NCBI RefSeq assembly: GCF_988242995.1
Contig: NZ_OZ547043.1
Direction: 5' to 3' (one strand)
Length of the DNA: 64,000 nucleotides
The notes under the pieces are model-generated. The model saw only the letters and a list, made by a program, of their open reading frames with translations. It made no database searches and was not told the DNA's origin. The first letter of the stretch is position 1. Every line of letters begins with the position of its first letter. A program made the translations under genes and the position numbers. Below are positions 11,703 to 57,364 of the stretch, piece by piece.

Positions 11703-12290
11703 GTGACACCGACCCTTTTAAGTGCTTTTTGGACTTACACCCTGATTACCGCCATGACGCCAGGACCGAACAATATTCTCGCCCTTAGCTCAGCTACAAC
11801 GCACGGATTTCGTCAAAGTACTCGCGTGCTGGCAGGGATGAGTCTGGGATTTTTAATCGTCATGTTGCTATGCGCGGGAATTTCGTTTTCACTGGCTGTT
11901 ATCGACCCGGCAGCAGTGCATCTGTTGAGTTGGGCGGGGGCGGCATATATTGTCTGGCTGGCGTGGAAAATCGCTACCAGTCCAACAAAGGAAGATGGGC
12001 TTCAGACAAAACCAATCAGTTTTTGGGCCAGCTTTGCTTTGCAGTTTGTGAACGTCAAAATCATTTTGTATGGCATTACAGCACTGTCGACGTTTGTCCT
12101 GCCGCAAACGCAGGCGCTAAGCTGGATAATTGGCGTCAGCGTTTTGCTGGCGATGATTGGGACGTTTGGCAATGTGTGCTGGGCGCTGGCGGGGCACCTG
12201 TTTCAGCGATTGTTTCGCCAGTATGGTCGCCAGTTAAATATCGTGCTCGCGCTGCTGCTGGTCTATTGCGCGGTACGCATTTTCTATTAA
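11703..12290 (+). CDS. eamB: Cysteine/O-acetylserine exporter EamB (YfiK), LysE/RhtB family
   Basis: 195-aa hydrophobic ORF with a non-ATG start as given by the ORF track; divergent from yfiE. Confidence 0.8.
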   Translation: MTPTLLSAFWTYTLITAMTPGPNNILALSSATTHGFRQSTRVLAGMSLGFLIVMLLCAGISFSLAVIDPAAVHLLSWAGAAYIVWLAWKIATSPTKEDGLQTKPISFWASFALQFVNVKIILYGITALSTFVLPQTQALSWIIGVSVLLAMIGTFGNVCWALAGHLFQRLFRQYGRQLNIVLALLLVYCAVRIFY

Positions 12291-12293
12291 TGA

Positions 12294-12335
12294 AAAAAGC
12301 GGAAGAGGTCGCCCTCTTCCGCTTAGTAACTTGCT
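12294..12335. terminator. Bidirectional rho-independent terminator between eamB and grcA
   Basis: Hairpin gcggaagaggtcgccctcttccgc flanked by A/T runs. Confidence 0.6.
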
Positions 12336-12344
12336 ACTTAAGCC

Positions 12345-12728
12345 TTACAGGCTTTCAGTAAAGGTACGAGCGATAACGTCGCGCTGCTGTTCCGGAGTCA
12401 GAGAGTTAAAGCGAACTGCATAACCGGATACACGGATGGTCAGCTGCGGATATTTTTCCGGATGCTTAACTGCATCTTCCAGAGTTTCACGACGCAGAAC
12501 GTTTACGTTCAGGTGTTGACCACCTTCAACGCGAACTTCTGGTTTCACTTCTACTGGAACTTCACGGTACTCAATGTCACCCAGTTTGCTTACTGCAACC
12601 ACTTCGTCTTCTGCAAAACCTGCTTTCGCAACGATGCAACGCGCTTCGCCTTTTTCGCTGTCCAGCAGCCAGAAAGAGTTCAGCAGATCGTCGTTAGCGG
12701 CTTTAGTAATCTGGATACCTGTAATCAT
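12345..12728 (-). CDS. grcA: Glycyl-radical autonomous cofactor GrcA (YfiD)
   Basis: ORF track gives 133 aa; start trimmed to [13 protein letters not shown] (127 aa); C-terminal glycyl-radical motif RVSGYAV. Confidence 0.9.
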
Positions 12729-12835
12729 GTGATGCCTCCCCGGCAAAATTATTTGATTTGTTCAGCCTGTCGCGGCCAATTGGTAAAACCATTGTTGCTT
12801 GAGTGTATATATACTCCTCAAACACCCTTGAATCT

Positions 12836-12849
12836 TTGATTTAAATCAA
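12836..12849. promoter_or_regulatory. FNR/CRP-type binding site upstream of grcA
   Basis: Perfect palindrome TTGAT-TTAA-ATCAA read directly in the sequence, about 110 bp upstream of the grcA start; matches the FNR consensus TTGAT-N4-ATCAA. Confidence 0.65.
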
Positions 12850-13032
12850 TAAAAACCATACATCAAGTATGGTCGCAAATGGATTTTATTGTTTTACATC
12901 AACTTATACAGGTGTGAAATTTTACCAATTTACATTTTTTTGCACTCGTTTAAGTCTAAATAATGAGCATGATTTTGTTCTGTAGAAAGAAGCAGTTAAG
13001 CTAGGCGGATTGAAGATTCGCGGGAGAGCGAG

Positions 13033-13722
13033 ATGGCAAACGAATTAACCTGGCATGACGTGCTGGCTGAAGAGAAGCAACAACCCTATTTTCTTAATAC
13101 CCTACAGACCGTCGCCAGCGAGCGGCAGTCCGGCGTCACTATCTATCCGCCACAAAAGGATGTCTTTAACGCGTTCCGCTTTACAGAGTTGGGTGACGTT
13201 AAAGTGGTGATTCTCGGCCAGGATCCTTATCACGGACCGGGACAGGCGCATGGTCTGGCATTTTCCGTTCGCCCCGGCATTGCGACACCGCCGTCACTGC
13301 TGAATATGTATAAAGAGCTGGAAAATACTATTCCCGGTTTCACCCGCCCTAATCATGGTTATCTTGAAAGCTGGGCGCGTCAGGGCGTTCTGCTACTCAA
13401 TACTGTGTTGACGGTTCGCGCAGGTCAGGCGCATTCCCACGCCAGTCTCGGCTGGGAGACCTTCACCGATAAAGTCATCAGCCTGATTAACCAGCACCGC
13501 GAAGGCGTGGTGTTTTTGTTGTGGGGCTCACATGCGCAAAAGAAAGGGGCGATTATTGATAAGCAACGCCATCACGTACTGAAAGCGCCGCATCCATCAC
13601 CGCTTTCTGCGCATCGTGGGTTCTTTGGCTGCAACCATTTTGTGCTGGCAAATCAGTGGCTGGAACAACGTGGCGAGAAACCGATTGACTGGATGCCAGT
13701 ATTACCGGCAGAGAGTGAGTAA
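13033..13722 (+). CDS. ung: Uracil-DNA glycosylase
   Basis: 229-aa ORF with conserved UDG motifs ([19 protein letters not shown]). Confidence 0.95.
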
Positions 13723-13769: not shown

Positions 13770-14807
13770 TCAGGCTTTATTCTGACGCCACCATTCACCA
13801 AGCAAAACGCCAGTTGCGACAGAGATATTTAGCCCGGCAACGTTGCCAGTACCGTCAATCTTCACGCGCAGATCGTTTGGATCGCGTGCGGCATCCGGTA
13901 ACCCTTCATATTCCTGACCCAGCACCAGTACCATTTTCGCTGGCAGACTGGTTTTGAACAGCGGTTTACCCTGCTCGCTGGAAGTGGTCACTACGGTGTA
14001 ACCCGCCTGACGGAAATCATCCAGCACGTTAACAATGTTGTCGCCAGTAATCGGCTGAACGTGCTCTGCGCCGCCTTCTGCGGTACGGATAGCCGCACCC
14101 GACTCCAGCAGTGCCGCATCCTGCACCACAACGCCTTTCACGCCGAAGTGCGCACAGCTGCGCATCATGCCACCCAGGTTATGCGGGTTAGATTCGTTTT
14201 CCAGTGCCAGTACACAATCCTGCACGCCTGCCTGGCTTACCCACTGCTGCACGGTTGTACCGTTACGCTTTTTGATCAGGAAGCAAACGCCGCCGTGATG
14301 TTCCGTGCCTGACGCTTTTGTCAGTTCCGCTTCATCCACAACATGGTACGCTTTGCGGTTTGCTGCCATCCAGCGCAAGGCTTCTTTAAAACGCGGCGTT
14401 ACACTCTGGATAAACCAGGCGCGAACAATCGCTTCAGGACGGCTCTGGAACAGTGCCTGACAGGCATTTTCGCCGTAGACGCGGGTTTCTTCCGCACGCT
14501 GACGACGCAAAACTTCCGGATCAATAAAACTTTTACCACTGATGCCACCGTGATCGGCCTTTTCCGGCGTCTCATCACCCGGCGCGCGGGAAACTGTGCG
14601 CCACGGCGACTCTTCCCACTTGCGGTCACGGGGCTGACTCTGTTTGTCATCGCGGGCGGGGCGACGGCCACCGTCAGCACGAGATTTTCCTGGACGCCCG
14701 CCCCCTTTCCCGGTACGCGGGTTGTGGGTACGTTTATCAGAATCATCATCACTGCGGACATACATCACTTTGACCTTGCCGCTTTTACCTTTCATTTCAT
14801 CGTTCAT
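13770..14807 (-). CDS. yfiF: SpoU/TrmH-family RNA 2'-O-methyltransferase YfiF
   Basis: ORF track gives 370 aa; start trimmed to [13 protein letters not shown] (345 aa); basic low-complexity N-terminus plus SPOUT domain. Confidence 0.8.
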
Positions 14808-52483: not shown

Positions 52484-52531
52484 GGTATACGTTTAGGTAT
52501 ACGGTAAGATGTATACCTAAATGCGTATACC
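52484..52531. promoter_or_regulatory. Repeat cluster at the int 5' end (GTATAC-containing repeats with an 11-bp inverted repeat); candidate Int arm-type sites or int operator
   Basis: TTTAGGTATAC-N8-GTATACCTAAA perfect inverted repeat (about 52492-52521) abutting the ATG at 52521, plus two more GGTATAC/CGTATACC copies. Confidence 0.45.
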
Positions 52532-53753
52532 AATTCATGAAGGAACGGCCAAAGTGGCAAGAACGACACGTCCCCTGACCAACACTGAAGTTCTGCGCGC
52601 TAAAGCGTTAGAAAAGGATCTAACGTTGCATGATGGCGATGGCCTTTTTCTGCTCGTTAAAACGAACGGTAAGAAATTATGGCGTTTCCGCTACCAAAAG
52701 CCAGTAACAAAACAGCGGACCATGATTAGTTTAGGAACCTTCCCTGCACTATCCTTGGCTGAAATCAGAAATGTGCGAGCTAAGTATCTTTCCTTGTTAG
52801 CCAAGGGGATCGATCCACAAACACACAATGAACAAGTCACACAACAACAACAAATTGCAGTAGAAAGTATTTTTTCAAACGTTGCTAAAAATTGGTTTGC
52901 CATTAAACGCAATAGCGTTACACCTGATTATGCAAAGGATATATGGCGATCCTTAGAGAAGGACATTTTCCCTGCTATCGGAGAGATTCCTGTTCAGGAA
53001 ATAAAAGCACGTATATTAATTGAAGCCCTAGAACCAATTAAGGCCCGCGGTGCACTCGAGACTGTTCGTCGTTTGGTGCAACGTATTAACGAAATTATGA
53101 TCTACGCTGTCAATACCGGATTAATTGAGGCTAATCCTGCGTCAGGTATTGGCATGGCTTTTGATAAACCCAAAAAGCAAAATTTGCCAACGCTGCGGCC
53201 AGAAGAATTACCTAAACTGATGCATTCTCTAGTAATGTCAAACCTGTCTATTCCTACTCGTTGTCTGATCGAATGGCAACTACTGACACTCGTTCGCCCT
53301 TCAGAAGCCTCTGGCGCCCGCTGGGATGAGATCGATTTAGAATCCAAACTTTGGAGAATTCCTGCTGAAAGGATGAAAGCAAAGCGCGAACATATAGTTC
53401 CTTTATCATCTCAAGCTTTAATTATTCTTGAAGTAATGAAACCCATAAGTGCTCATCGTGAACATATATTTCCTAGCAGGAATAACCCTCAAGAACCGAT
53501 GAATAGCCAAACAGCAAATGCAGCATTAAAACGCATAGGGTACGGAGGAAAGTTAGTTGCACATGGACTCCGTTCTATTGCCAGCACTGCATTAAATGAA
53601 GCCGAATTTAATTCTGACATTATTGAATCAGCTCTTGCACATGTTGATAAAAATGAGGTGAGAAGAGCATATAACCGCTCCACTTATCTTGATAAACGTA
53701 AAGAGATGATGGCTTGGTGGGGAAATTTTATATATAAAAATAATTCATTATAA
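52521..53753 (+). CDS. int: Tyrosine recombinase (phage integrase, P4/CP4-57 family)
   Basis: 410-aa ORF with C-terminal catalytic region (HGLRSIAST...LAHVD...RRAYNRSTYLDKR); real start may be the downstream GTG (about 52551, reading VARTTRPLT). Confidence 0.88.
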   Translation: MRIPIHEGTAKVARTTRPLTNTEVLRAKALEKDLTLHDGDGLFLLVKTNGKKLWRFRYQKPVTKQRTMISLGTFPALSLAEIRNVRAKYLSLLAKGIDPQTHNEQVTQQQQIAVESIFSNVAKNWFAIKRNSVTPDYAKDIWRSLEKDIFPAIGEIPVQEIKARILIEALEPIKARGALETVRRLVQRINEIMIYAVNTGLIEANPASGIGMAFDKPKKQNLPTLRPEELPKLMHSLVMSNLSIPTRCLIEWQLLTLVRPSEASGARWDEIDLESKLWRIPAERMKAKREHIVPLSSQALIILEVMKPISAHREHIFPSRNNPQEPMNSQTANAALKRIGYGGKLVAHGLRSIASTALNEAEFNSDIIESALAHVDKNEVRRAYNRSTYLDKRKEMMAWWGNFIYKNNSL

Positions 53754-53764
53754 AAGGTATTACA

Positions 53765-54799
53765 ATGAATATTGATTCTATAAAACTTCATTTACAAAAT
53801 TTTTTCACAAATAATCCAACTGTTCTTATCGGTTCTGGCCTCTCTCTCGGTGAGGGGATTCCAGGTATGAAAACATTGGGAGAACATCTTAATACAACTA
53901 TCCCCAAATTAGTAAGCGGGGATCTTATAAGAGAATGGGGTATCATAAGTTCCAAACTAAATAATGGTATGGGACTTGAAGATGCCATGGCATTTCTTAA
54001 AGATGAAAGTGAACTTATCCCATTAATTATTCAGCACACCGCAGATCTTATTTTAAAGCATGAAAATACTGTAATATGCTCTGTAATCAATGGAGAAAAA
54101 AATCTAGCATTTACATCTTTATTGAATCACTTAACTTTTAATCAAAATGAATTGATAATTATAACTCCAAACTATGATAGACTAATTGAAATAGCATGTG
54201 AAATTGCTGGTCTAGAAATTTCAACAGGATTTATCAATAGTTATCATTGTATAAATAATCCTGAAGTTGAGTTAGATAAATTCAAAATCACCCACTCTAT
54301 CAAAACCACACGAGGTAAATCTACAGTTCAAATTAGAACTAAAAAACACGTTAAAATATTTAAACCTCATGGTAGTCTTGATTGGTTCAAGGCTGACGAT
54401 AAAATTATCAGGACCAGCTTTCAAAATAAACATAAAAGATTAATTATTACACCAGGTACAAGTAAATTCAGAGCTGGATATCAGCAGCCTTTTGATTGGC
54501 ATAGAGAAAAAGCAAACCATTATATCAAAAGAGCAAAATCACTATTAATTATTGGCTATGGGTTTAATGATGAGCAGTTAGAAGTACATTTGAAATCAAA
54601 AATACGTGAAAAAATACCTGTTTTATTAATGACATATGAATTGACATCAAACGCTCAAAAAATATGTGATGATAATCCTTCTATAACATATGTTATTGCA
54701 GAAGGAAACAATTCCATCGTTTGTATCGATGGCATTAAATATAAAATCGAAAAGAATATTTGGTCTTTAAATGAGTTTGTTAAAGAGGTACTTAAATAA
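53765..54799 (+). CDS. SIR2-like NAD+-binding protein (predicted NADase effector); cargo gene 1
   Basis: 344-aa ORF. Gly-rich NAD-binding loop VLIGSGLSLGEG, TPNYD motif (catalytic Asn codon 54170-54172), KPHGS motif (His codon 54367-54369) and second Rossmann motif IIGYGFND. Low GC; stop overlaps next gene's start (TAATG). Confidence 0.8.
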   Translation: MNIDSIKLHLQNFFTNNPTVLIGSGLSLGEGIPGMKTLGEHLNTTIPKLVSGDLIREWGIISSKLNNGMGLEDAMAFLKDESELIPLIIQHTADLILKHENTVICSVINGEKNLAFTSLLNHLTFNQNELIIITPNYDRLIEIACEIAGLEISTGFINSYHCINNPEVELDKFKITHSIKTTRGKSTVQIRTKKHVKIFKPHGSLDWFKADDKIIRTSFQNKHKRLIITPGTSKFRAGYQQPFDWHREKANHYIKRAKSLLIIGYGFNDEQLEVHLKSKIREKIPVLLMTYELTSNAQKICDDNPSITYVIAEGNNSIVCIDGIKYKIEKNIWSLNEFVKEVLK

Positions 54800-56583
54800 T
54801 GGAATATTACGTCATTAACACTGATGAAACATGCTTTATCGGACGAATCGCAAATGTTGATACCGATCGTGCTATTATCATTTCAGAGTCTCCAGAGATC
54901 ATACAAGAACTAACCGTTTTTGACTTGGTTGCTATTGAAGGCAATACCCCCACAGAGTTTCTTGTTGGTATCATTGAAAAAGTAAAACGCTCTATTGGAG
55001 AAATACAAACTATTGATACTGAAGAAAATATTGAAGATGACAGTGAAAAAGATTTCGATAATATCTTCCAAACTTATTCTATCGATCATGATATTCTTCA
55101 AGTAGCTCTTATCGGCACTTTCTGGGAGGTTTACGGGGATAGAAGGAAAATTTTTAAAAGAGGAGCACAATATTTTCCAAAAGTTGAAAAACAAGCATTT
55201 CTTATAAAAAAAGACAGTCTTGAGAAATTAATGTCGGCAGTCGACAATGATACTCCTGATGAGCTAAAACTCATACTAGGCAACTATGGAAATACCAATT
55301 CACGAGCAGTTGCAAATGGGGATAAATTATTTCAGAGACATGCTGCCCTATTGGGGAGTACTGGTTCAGGTAAAAGTTGGACAGTTGCGTCATTACTAGA
55401 ACAAGCCTCAAAATTAAAATACAACAATATTGTACTTTATGATCTTCATGGTGAATACAAAACTTTATCTGATACACATAATAAATCGAACCGCCCGAGC
55501 ATAGCCGATTATTTTAAAATTGCAAGCCCAGGAAATATCGACGATGTAAATAGTATTTATGTACCTCATTGGTTATTAAACAAAGAAGAAATGCTATCAC
55601 TGTTGTTAGATAGAAGCGATAGCAATGCACCTAATCAGGCAGCAAGATTTAGCTACCACGTGAGAGAGCTAAAAAAAGAATACATCACACACAACAGATT
55701 AATACACTTAGAAGATTGTTTGACTGTTGATGCTCCAATACCCTACTCTATCGAGGATCTTATTAGCAGACTGCACGATGATGATCAAGGTATGAAAAAA
55801 GGTACTAATAATAAAGAAATAAAAGGTGATTGGAATGGAAAACTAACAAGATTCATAAGCAGGTTAAGAACAAAAGTAGACGACAAGAGGAACTGTTTTC
55901 TATTCTCAAATAAACCAGAACACAACCAATATGATTGGTTGGAGAAATACGCTTGTAAAATTTTAAAATCAGATAGCACAGATCATGGCATTAAAATAAT
56001 TGATTTTTCTGAAGTTCCTTCAGATATTATGCCTATTGTTATTGGTGTATTGACCAGATTTTTATACAACGTCCAATTTTGGAGATGTGAGACCGAACGA
56101 ACCCCTATAGCATTCGTTTGTGACGAAGCTCATATTTATTTACCCGCTAAGGATACCACTGAGGCTGAAACAAAAATATCCTTATCAATATTCGAGAAAA
56201 TTGCTAAAGAAGGCAGAAAGTACGGAGTATCTTTATTAGTCGTCAGCCAAAGACCTTCTGATGTTAGCAGAACAATACTAAGTCAATGTAATAACATAAT
56301 TTCTCTCAGACTAAGTAATTATAGAGATCAACAGGTAGTTAGTCGGTTAATGCCTGATTCATTGAGTTCATTAACATCCATACTACCAATTCTTGATACT
56401 GGGGAAGCAATAGTTCTTGGCGACTCTGTTCTATTACCAGCTAGAATAAAATTGAATCCACCAACACTCAAGCCCGATAGCGCAACCAGAGCTTTTTGGA
56501 ATGAGTGGGGGGCAATTGAAGCAAAAGAAATCTCTATAGCAAATGCTGTTGAATCACTCAGGAGACAATCTCGTAATCGCTAA
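54799..56583 (+). CDS. HerA/FtsK-type ATPase; cargo gene 2
   Basis: 594-aa ORF. Walker A GSTGSGKS (Lys codon 55372-55374), Walker B FVCDEAH (56122-56133), and KEGRKYGVSLLVVSQRP arginine-finger region typical of HerA. Translationally coupled to the SIR2-like gene. Confidence 0.8.
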   Translation: MEYYVINTDETCFIGRIANVDTDRAIIISESPEIIQELTVFDLVAIEGNTPTEFLVGIIEKVKRSIGEIQTIDTEENIEDDSEKDFDNIFQTYSIDHDILQVALIGTFWEVYGDRRKIFKRGAQYFPKVEKQAFLIKKDSLEKLMSAVDNDTPDELKLILGNYGNTNSRAVANGDKLFQRHAALLGSTGSGKSWTVASLLEQASKLKYNNIVLYDLHGEYKTLSDTHNKSNRPSIADYFKIASPGNIDDVNSIYVPHWLLNKEEMLSLLLDRSDSNAPNQAARFSYHVRELKKEYITHNRLIHLEDCLTVDAPIPYSIEDLISRLHDDDQGMKKGTNNKEIKGDWNGKLTRFISRLRTKVDDKRNCFLFSNKPEHNQYDWLEKYACKILKSDSTDHGIKIIDFSEVPSDIMPIVIGVLTRFLYNVQFWRCETERTPIAFVCDEAHIYLPAKDTTEAETKISLSIFEKIAKEGRKYGVSLLVVSQRPSDVSRTILSQCNNIISLRLSNYRDQQVVSRLMPDSLSSLTSILPILDTGEAIVLGDSVLLPARIKLNPPTLKPDSATRAFWNEWGAIEAKEISIANAVESLRRQSRNR

Positions 56584-56608
56584 TAAAAATATTATCTAGC
56601 AACGCGCA

Positions 56609-56627
56609 GTGCTTTCCCCGCCTCGCC
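56609..56627 (-). other. P2/P4-type cos site (19-nt cohesive end sequence)
   Basis: Window reads GTGCTTTCCCCGCCTCGCC, the exact reverse complement of the P2/P4 cohesive end GGCGAGGCGGGGAAAGCAC as recalled; flanked by GC-rich dyads. Confidence 0.8.
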
Positions 56628-56791
56628 CGCCCGCTTTGCGGGGCGGTTTCAGTGCAGTTGCACTGACACGCTCAGGCCGCGCCGGGAATGGCGCGGTCTG
56701 CAGAAAATGAGGCAGGAAAACGCATGCAAAGCCATGCACCTTATCGATGCATGGCTTTTTTCAGTAAAAACGGGCGGATTTTCGGGGAATT

Positions 56792-57364
56792 TTACACAGA
56801 CTGATGTGATGCCAGTTGCGCACTTTTACGCGAAAAAATCATGTTCTGCGCAGGAGTGAATTTTTCACGGCTGTCATCCACCGAAGCCGCGTCAGGCCTG
56901 AATCCGATGGTCGTTAAAATGTCGCTATCCTGTGCGGAATAATTAATTTTTTCACCCTTCGCAAGCCAGGACTGGAGGGCTTCACGCAGGGCATCTGTGG
57001 CACGCTGTATGGCACAGTTTCGGGCAATGGCCGTCAGCTCACTGTAGCCCATCAGCTCCGGTGCCAGTGCCGCCGCCAGTGCTGTGCCGTGCTGCTGCAT
57101 AAAATCATTCAGCCGGTCGCGGATGCTGATGTGCTGAACGGCTTCATGCGAACGAATATAACGACCGGCGGCCTGATTCACCTGCCATTTTCTGACTTCG
57201 ATAATATTGCGTAATTCGTCCAGGCGACTGACGTTTCTGCCTTCTCCTGACAGAAGCCGCAGGTATTCCTGTTCGGCCGCTGCCAGCTCATTTTTGCGTT
57301 GCAGCCATGCTGCTTTGTTATTCTGACAGGTGTCAAAGGCCTGCTGTAAGGCTGTGCTTTCCAT
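56792..57364 (-). CDS. psu: P4 Psu-like protein (polarity suppression / capsid decoration)
   Basis: 190-aa ORF, the same length as P4 Psu, in the conserved psu-delta-sid order next to cos. Confidence 0.75.
   Translation of the reverse strand: MESTALQQAFDTCQNNKAAWLQRKNELAAAEQEYLRLLSGEGRNVSRLDELRNIIEVRKWQVNQAAGRYIRSHEAVQHISIRDRLNDFMQQHGTALAAALAPELMGYSELTAIARNCAIQRATDALREALQSWLAKGEKINYSAQDSDILTTIGFRPDAASVDDSREKFTPAQNMIFSRKSAQLASHQSV

Follow-up and report, generated by a model that had tools for sequence, protein, structure and literature searches.

A perfect FNR-type palindrome in the grcA-ung spacer of an Escherichia coli 64-kb window and its identification with the published FNR I site of the yfiD promoter

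The perfect palindrome at positions 12836-12849 of the sequence described here is almost certainly the activator site already published as FNR I of the E. coli yfiD/grcA promoter, a high-affinity class II site bound by FNR. FNR I, its partner box FNR II, the transcription start point and the co-regulators of this promoter are already known; they were characterised in 1998-2002, confirmed genome-wide in 2006-2020 and used as an engineering part in 2023. All positions refer to the window, i.e. the whole stretch of 64,000 nucleotides that was analysed. The features of the region are as follows, with promoter positions numbered from the grcA transcript start.

12345-12728, minus strand: grcA (yfiD), coding for the autonomous glycyl-radical cofactor of 127 aa (annotated in an identical RefSeq genome)
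12735-12739, minus strand: Shine-Dalgarno sequence GGAGG, 6 nt before the grcA ATG (read from the sequence)
12778-12794, no strand assigned: PdhR operator AATTGGTaaaACCAtTg, +9 to +25, pyruvate-relieved repression (Anzai 2020)
12781-12812, plus strand: predicted three-repeat ArcA site, -10 to +22, under an ArcA ChIP peak; weak PWM match of 10.5 bits (Park 2013 supplement)
12802, minus strand: grcA transcript start (+1) from the literature, following the -10/+22 numbering of Park 2013
12808-12813, minus strand: putative -10 hexamer TATATA of grcA, -11 to -6, proposed from the TATA(t/a)(a/g) block found at a fixed distance from FNR I
12836-12849, no strand assigned: FNR I, perfect palindrome TTGATTTAAATCAA, centre at -40.5, class II activator site
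12889-12902, no strand assigned: FNR II, TTGTTTTACATCAA on the plus strand and TTGATGTAAAACAA on the grcA strand, one mismatch, centre at -93.5, down-regulating
13033-13722, plus strand: ung coding sequence (RefSeq annotation of an identical genome)

Locus and sequence context

According to the annotation of a RefSeq genome that is 100% identical, positions 12729-13032 are exactly the 304-bp spacer between grcA and ung. GrcA is a small protein whose 127 residues include a Pfam Gly_radical domain (PF01228, E=3.8e-19, residues 17-108). The sequence at 12836-12849, examined by pattern search, agrees with the FNR consensus TTGAT-N4-ATCAA at 10 of 10 consensus positions. Measured from the A of the grcA ATG (12728), its centre (12842.5) is 114.5 bp and its near edge 108 bp upstream. 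The original prediction had placed an exact consensus palindrome at this position, about 110 bp from the grcA start; the pattern search confirmed the position and the match, and the distance was a fair estimate.

Several E. coli chromosomes matched an 801-bp query of the locus at 100% identity, and the locus was found at 95% identity or more in 5,425 of 5,426 complete E. coli genomes. A 42-nt megablast of the box matched 2,590 of the 5,426 genomes, a count that is uninformative for the 14-mer, as SNPs at 12832 and 12859 probably break the required 28-base word. Over the spacer, the window is collinear with the K-12 MG1655 sequence, without indels. Six single-base differences separate the two (12859, which is -57, and 12908, 12910, 12961, 13022 and 13038). 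Both FNR boxes, the PdhR box and the -10 element are identical in the window and in K-12, as are the flanks from -56 to the ATG. Published K-12 coordinates were converted by subtracting 2,701,743 from the U00096.2 coordinate, a relation fixed by matching both box strings to K-12 and to the window.

FNR I and the promoter core

The occupancy of FNR I in K-12 is well documented. Myers et al. 2013 placed yfiD in Category 1 (directly FNR-activated), with a site at -40.5. Their supplement lists TTGATTTAAATCAA as FNR-bound at 2,714,579 with a PWM score of 17.25, a coordinate that converts exactly to window position 12836. The FNR ChIP-seq peak of the same study, at 2,714,605, converts to about 12862, between the two FNR boxes. 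The supplement also describes yfiD as 'Activated' with an expression value of 0.11, which is read here as the ratio of fnr mutant to wild type. Independently, Grainger et al. 2006 reported an FNR ChIP-chip target at yfiD/ung. Boecker et al. 2023 rebuilt the yfiD promoter from Green 1998 and Marshall 2001, and their oligonucleotides include 'yfiD-P1', a 78-bp fragment that keeps the palindrome as its only FNR box. This fragment, which spans -60 to +18 when numbered from +1 at 12802, was a strong anaerobic promoter with some basal expression in air.

The start point was taken from the ArcA site given by Park et al. 2013 at 2,714,524-2,714,555 (TGGTAAAACCATTGTTGCTTGAGTGTATATAT), at -10/+22 of yfiD. 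This string is found at 12781-12812 of the window and sets +1 at 12802 on the minus strand; with this origin, the centres of the FNR boxes come to exactly -40.5 and -93.5. The same two positions stand in the title of Green et al. 1998 and in the use made of that paper. The sigma-70 ChIP peak at 2,714,546 (Myers 2013 supplement) converts to about 12803. At the implied +1 the minus strand carries a T, an uncommon base for transcription to start on, and the true start may be offset from 12802 by 1-2 nt. The site would then be centred at -41.5 or -42.5, still a class II arrangement, for which centres near -41.5 (from -39.5 to -42.5) are the rule. A literature search for an independent paper on the grcA start site found none.

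At the grcA promoter FNR I stands where a -35 hexamer would otherwise be, and no such hexamer is present. A strict sigma-70 scan of 12250-13100 found no promoter, as is expected for a class II FNR promoter of this kind; TATATA fails the T that the scan demands at position 6. An Rfam scan of the spacer and leader returned nothing credible, only matches far below threshold, one of them to a plant miRNA model that scored 25.6 bits where the cut-off was 100 bits.

FNR II and the micro-aerobic maximum

A mismatch-tolerant search located FNR II 53 bp (five helical turns) upstream of FNR I, centre to centre. This box had been overlooked in the original prediction. The Myers 2013 supplement lists TTGTTTTACATCAA as FNR-bound at 2,714,632, which converts exactly to window position 12889, and its PWM score of 13.87 marks it as weaker than FNR I in the same table. 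In the construct 'yfiD-m' of Boecker 2023, TTGATGTAAAACAA is changed to TTTATGTAAAAAAA, i.e. FNR II is mutated. The anaerobic output of both yfiD-P1 and yfiD-m was much above that of the wild-type 129-bp promoter, and the wild-type promoter was more active under micro-aerobic than under fully anaerobic conditions (Boecker 2023). Suppression of yfiD through FNR II is stated directly in a review. Trotter et al. 2011 list yfiD under the control of ArcA (+), FNR (+/-) and PdhR (-), and treat its induction as a marker of micro-aerobiosis. With two FNR boxes, one of them damping, FNR is a dual regulator at grcA, and expression peaks under micro-aerobic conditions and not under strict anaerobiosis.

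At sites identical in sequence to those of the window, the published K-12 experiments have thus established FNR binding in vivo, FNR-dependent expression of yfiD, the positions -40.5 and -93.5 and the effect of removing FNR II. The proposal that the palindrome is an FNR-type site for grcA is supported by the listing of the same 14-mer as FNR-bound, and comparison of the site with the mapped grcA promoter revealed no inconsistency. The accompanying proposal of anaerobic induction is supported as well, direct activation by FNR being borne out (Myers 2013); the picture was incomplete in a single point, since the second box dampens the promoter and micro-aerobic activity exceeds that under full anaerobiosis.

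Within the 39-bp spacer that separates the two boxes, a stretch of the minus strand at 12854-12874 was flagged as terminator-like; its halves ACCATAC and GTATGGT form an inverted repeat, with TTTTTA after it. Within this repeat the window differs from K-12 by an A/G change that keeps the pairing (T-A versus T-G), and a CCAC...GTGG repeat occupies the same position in many Enterobacteriaceae. Folding of 49 sequences gave the hairpin a weak mean z-score, about -1.2 for either strand, and Klebsiella/Cedecea-like and more distant loci among them have lost it. The inverted repeat may be due to chance. It is improbable that the repeat and the T-run form an undescribed functional element shaping how FNR II dampens FNR I, be it the site of an extra factor or a terminator insulating against read-through on the grcA strand.

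PdhR and ArcA operators

The PdhR box and the predicted ArcA site overlap just downstream of the grcA start, and both have already been published. Anzai et al. 2020 reported a gSELEX peak in the grcA/ung spacer with a PdhR box of 12/14 at 2,714,529; the coordinate converts to 12786, the centre of 12778-12794. In the anchored alignment of 42 Enterobacteriaceae sequences this box is nearly invariant. Wyborn 2002 is the paper cited for repression of yfiD by PdhR. A positive effect of ArcA on yfiD has been reported, in which ArcA counters the repression exerted by FNR; Park 2013 names disruption of FNR binding as the presumed route.

Conservation across species

The comparison set consisted of 80 grcA loci from other species, drawn from the Enterobacteriaceae, other Enterobacterales and the Pasteurellaceae. 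A box with at most one mismatch was present within 250 bp upstream of grcA in 77 of the 80 loci, and a perfect box in 46. The density of boxes upstream of grcA was 6.6 per kb, compared with 0.038 per kb elsewhere in these loci, which is a 176-fold enrichment. The median distance from the proximal box to the grcA ATG was 117 bp. A pair of boxes exactly 53 bp apart was found in 43 of the 80 loci (47 when spacings of 52-54 bp are counted), and the 53-bp spacing occurs also in Dickeya, Pectobacterium, Brenneria and Erwinia.

When 42 Enterobacteriaceae sequences were aligned without gaps on the proximal box, FNR II, the T-run abutting FNR I, FNR I itself, the block TATA(t/a)(a/g) at a fixed distance from it and the PdhR box were all conserved. 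Of the 39 Enterobacteriaceae loci with an FNR II box, 36 retain its non-consensus AACAA half, a pattern that fits selection for a deliberately weaker upstream box. The conserved imperfection of FNR II, together with the conserved 53-bp spacing, argues that micro-aerobic tuning is probably selected and no peculiarity of K-12.

Several Pasteurellaceae loci (six) carry their two FNR-like boxes upstream of grcA at a spacing of 42-44 bp in place of 53 bp, and the stronger one is distal. This arrangement suggests a tandem architecture unlike the enterobacterial one.

Alternative interpretations

The palindrome is the sole exact match to TTGAT-N4-ATCAA in the 64-kb window, where 0.13 matches are expected, and 13 of 100 dinucleotide-preserving shuffles of the window yielded at least one. 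By sequence alone, an exact FNR consensus is therefore about 8-fold rarer than one per window and only mildly improbable, and it stands against a background of 54 loose matches with up to two mismatches. These counts speak for the reading of an AT-rich palindrome that arose by chance, the spacer being AT-rich too, and that has no regulatory role; the context must carry the argument. That context consists of a position at -40.5 from the literature start, a partner box with one mismatch at a fixed 53 bp, the 176-fold enrichment and a position conserved in 77 of 80 species, which lift the palindrome far above chance. The published in vivo FNR binding and FNR-dependent expression contradict the idea directly, and the probability that the palindrome is a chance occurrence is negligible. 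A second reading would assign the palindrome to CRP. The inverted repeats of the two regulators are related, the CRP consensus being TGTGA-N6-TCACA and that of FNR TTGAT-N4-ATCAA. The box reads aTTGA...TCAAa, however, where CRP needs tGTGA...TCACa, so that it lacks the G/C pair distinguishing CRP sites. Both FNR ChIP and FNR-dependent expression are documented here, and use by CRP in place of FNR is hardly conceivable.

A third reading concerns the target gene, as the spacer is common to grcA and ung and the ChIP tables name the peak 'yfiD/ung'. The divergent arrangement of the two genes recurs in 75 of the 80 loci (ung was detected by tblastn in the flank of 78), and with such conservation synteny alone cannot separate the two genes as the target of FNR. 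Distances do separate them: from the ung ATG it is 190 bp upstream to the centre of the palindrome, which stands exactly at -40.5 from the grcA start, and over the 75 loci the distance of the box varies with an SD of 15 bp to grcA, compared with an SD of 57 bp (range 112-600) to ung. Furthermore, b2580 (ung) is absent from those supplementary files of Myers 2013 that are in text form, where yfiD appears as FNR-activated, and the response to oxygen is obtained with promoter fragments that point toward grcA (Boecker 2023). That the boxes serve ung, either instead of grcA or together with it, is very unlikely, and identification with FNR I of the grcA promoter is strongly preferred.

Other observations in the window

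FNR-like matches with at most two mismatches numbered 54 in the window, compared with 34.6 +/- 6 expected, and no shuffle reached this count. Some 15 of these fall together at 53.6-56.4 kb. An interpretation of the excess as FNR biology was rejected; it is attributed to the base composition of an AT-rich island at 53-56.5 kb.

The AT-rich insert at 53765-56583 (context 52521-57364), with 31-35% GC, carries genes for a protein of 344 aa with a SIR2 domain and for an ATPase of the HerA type, 594 aa long. The two proteins strongly match the PADLOC models SIR2 and HerA, with E=1e-124 and 9e-210, respectively, and their genes are flanked by a tyrosine integrase on one side and a Psu gene of P4 type on the other. 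From these matches and neighbours, the pair appears to be an anti-phage system of the SIR2-HerA kind, placed in a P4-like satellite hotspot. Only 1 of the 5,426 complete E. coli genomes contains the 4 kb in full.

For the yfiF-trxC spacer, published tables give an FNR ChIP peak (yfiF/trxC) at 2,716,583 in U00096.2 and a strong ArcA site (trxC/yfiF) of 18.9 bits at 2,716,706, the latter from Park 2013. These convert to about 14840 and about 14963 in the window. FNR boxes with at most one mismatch are absent there, and the nearest match with two mismatches, at 14733-14746, is about 100 bp away from the FNR peak.

Proposed regulation of grcA

The following sequence of events is proposed. When oxygen is scarce, a [4Fe-4S] FNR dimer binds FNR I at -40.5, where it replaces the -35 hexamer and recruits RNA polymerase to the putative TATATA -10 element (class II activation), and transcription begins at about 12802 on the minus strand. 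The weaker FNR II at -93.5 would be filled only when active FNR is abundant, and activation is then reduced. The micro-aerobic maximum would in this scheme arise from graded occupancy, set by the unequal affinities of FNR I and FNR II. Output of grcA is highest under micro-aerobic conditions, when oxygen-damaged pyruvate formate-lyase needs the spare glycyl-radical domain of GrcA. PdhR, bound at +9 to +25, represses until pyruvate accumulates, and ArcA counteracts the effect of FNR II.

Comparison with known systems

The palindrome serves as a positive control, in that an experimentally validated site was found at base-pair accuracy from the sequence alone, without tools. The conservation of the imperfect FNR II and of the 53-bp spacing in Enterobacteriaceae and several other Enterobacterales genera is a modest addition.

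FNR I of K-12 yfiD at -40.5, attributed to Green, Baldwin and Richardson 1998 and Marshall et al. 2001, is the same element, with an identical 14-mer, the same position relative to grcA and FNR II 53 bp upstream. The differences from the K-12 yfiD promoter are strain-level SNPs only, outside all known sites. The class II promoters of narG, dmsA and nirB, with the site at -41.5, likewise carry the FNR box over the -35 region, have no -35 hexamer and are activated anaerobically. In grcA the centre is one base closer, at -40.5, as at pflB, pykA and nikA (Myers 2013 table), and the second FNR box, at -93.5, represses and does not co-activate.

The focA-pflB region, which encodes the enzyme rescued by GrcA, shares with grcA an FNR site at -40.5, co-regulation by ArcA and the physiology of pyruvate formate-lyase. 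It is a different locus, and GrcA consists of the C-terminal glycyl-radical domain only; a search for reports of down-regulation by an upstream FNR box at focA-pflB found none. In the tandem CRP promoter CC(-122.5)CC(-61.5) (Lee and Busby 2012), as at yfiD, an upstream dimer of the CRP/FNR family lowers the activity of the proximal dimer. The two cases differ in their spacings and in the class of the proximal site, and the alpha C-terminal domain is stated to be uninvolved at yfiD.
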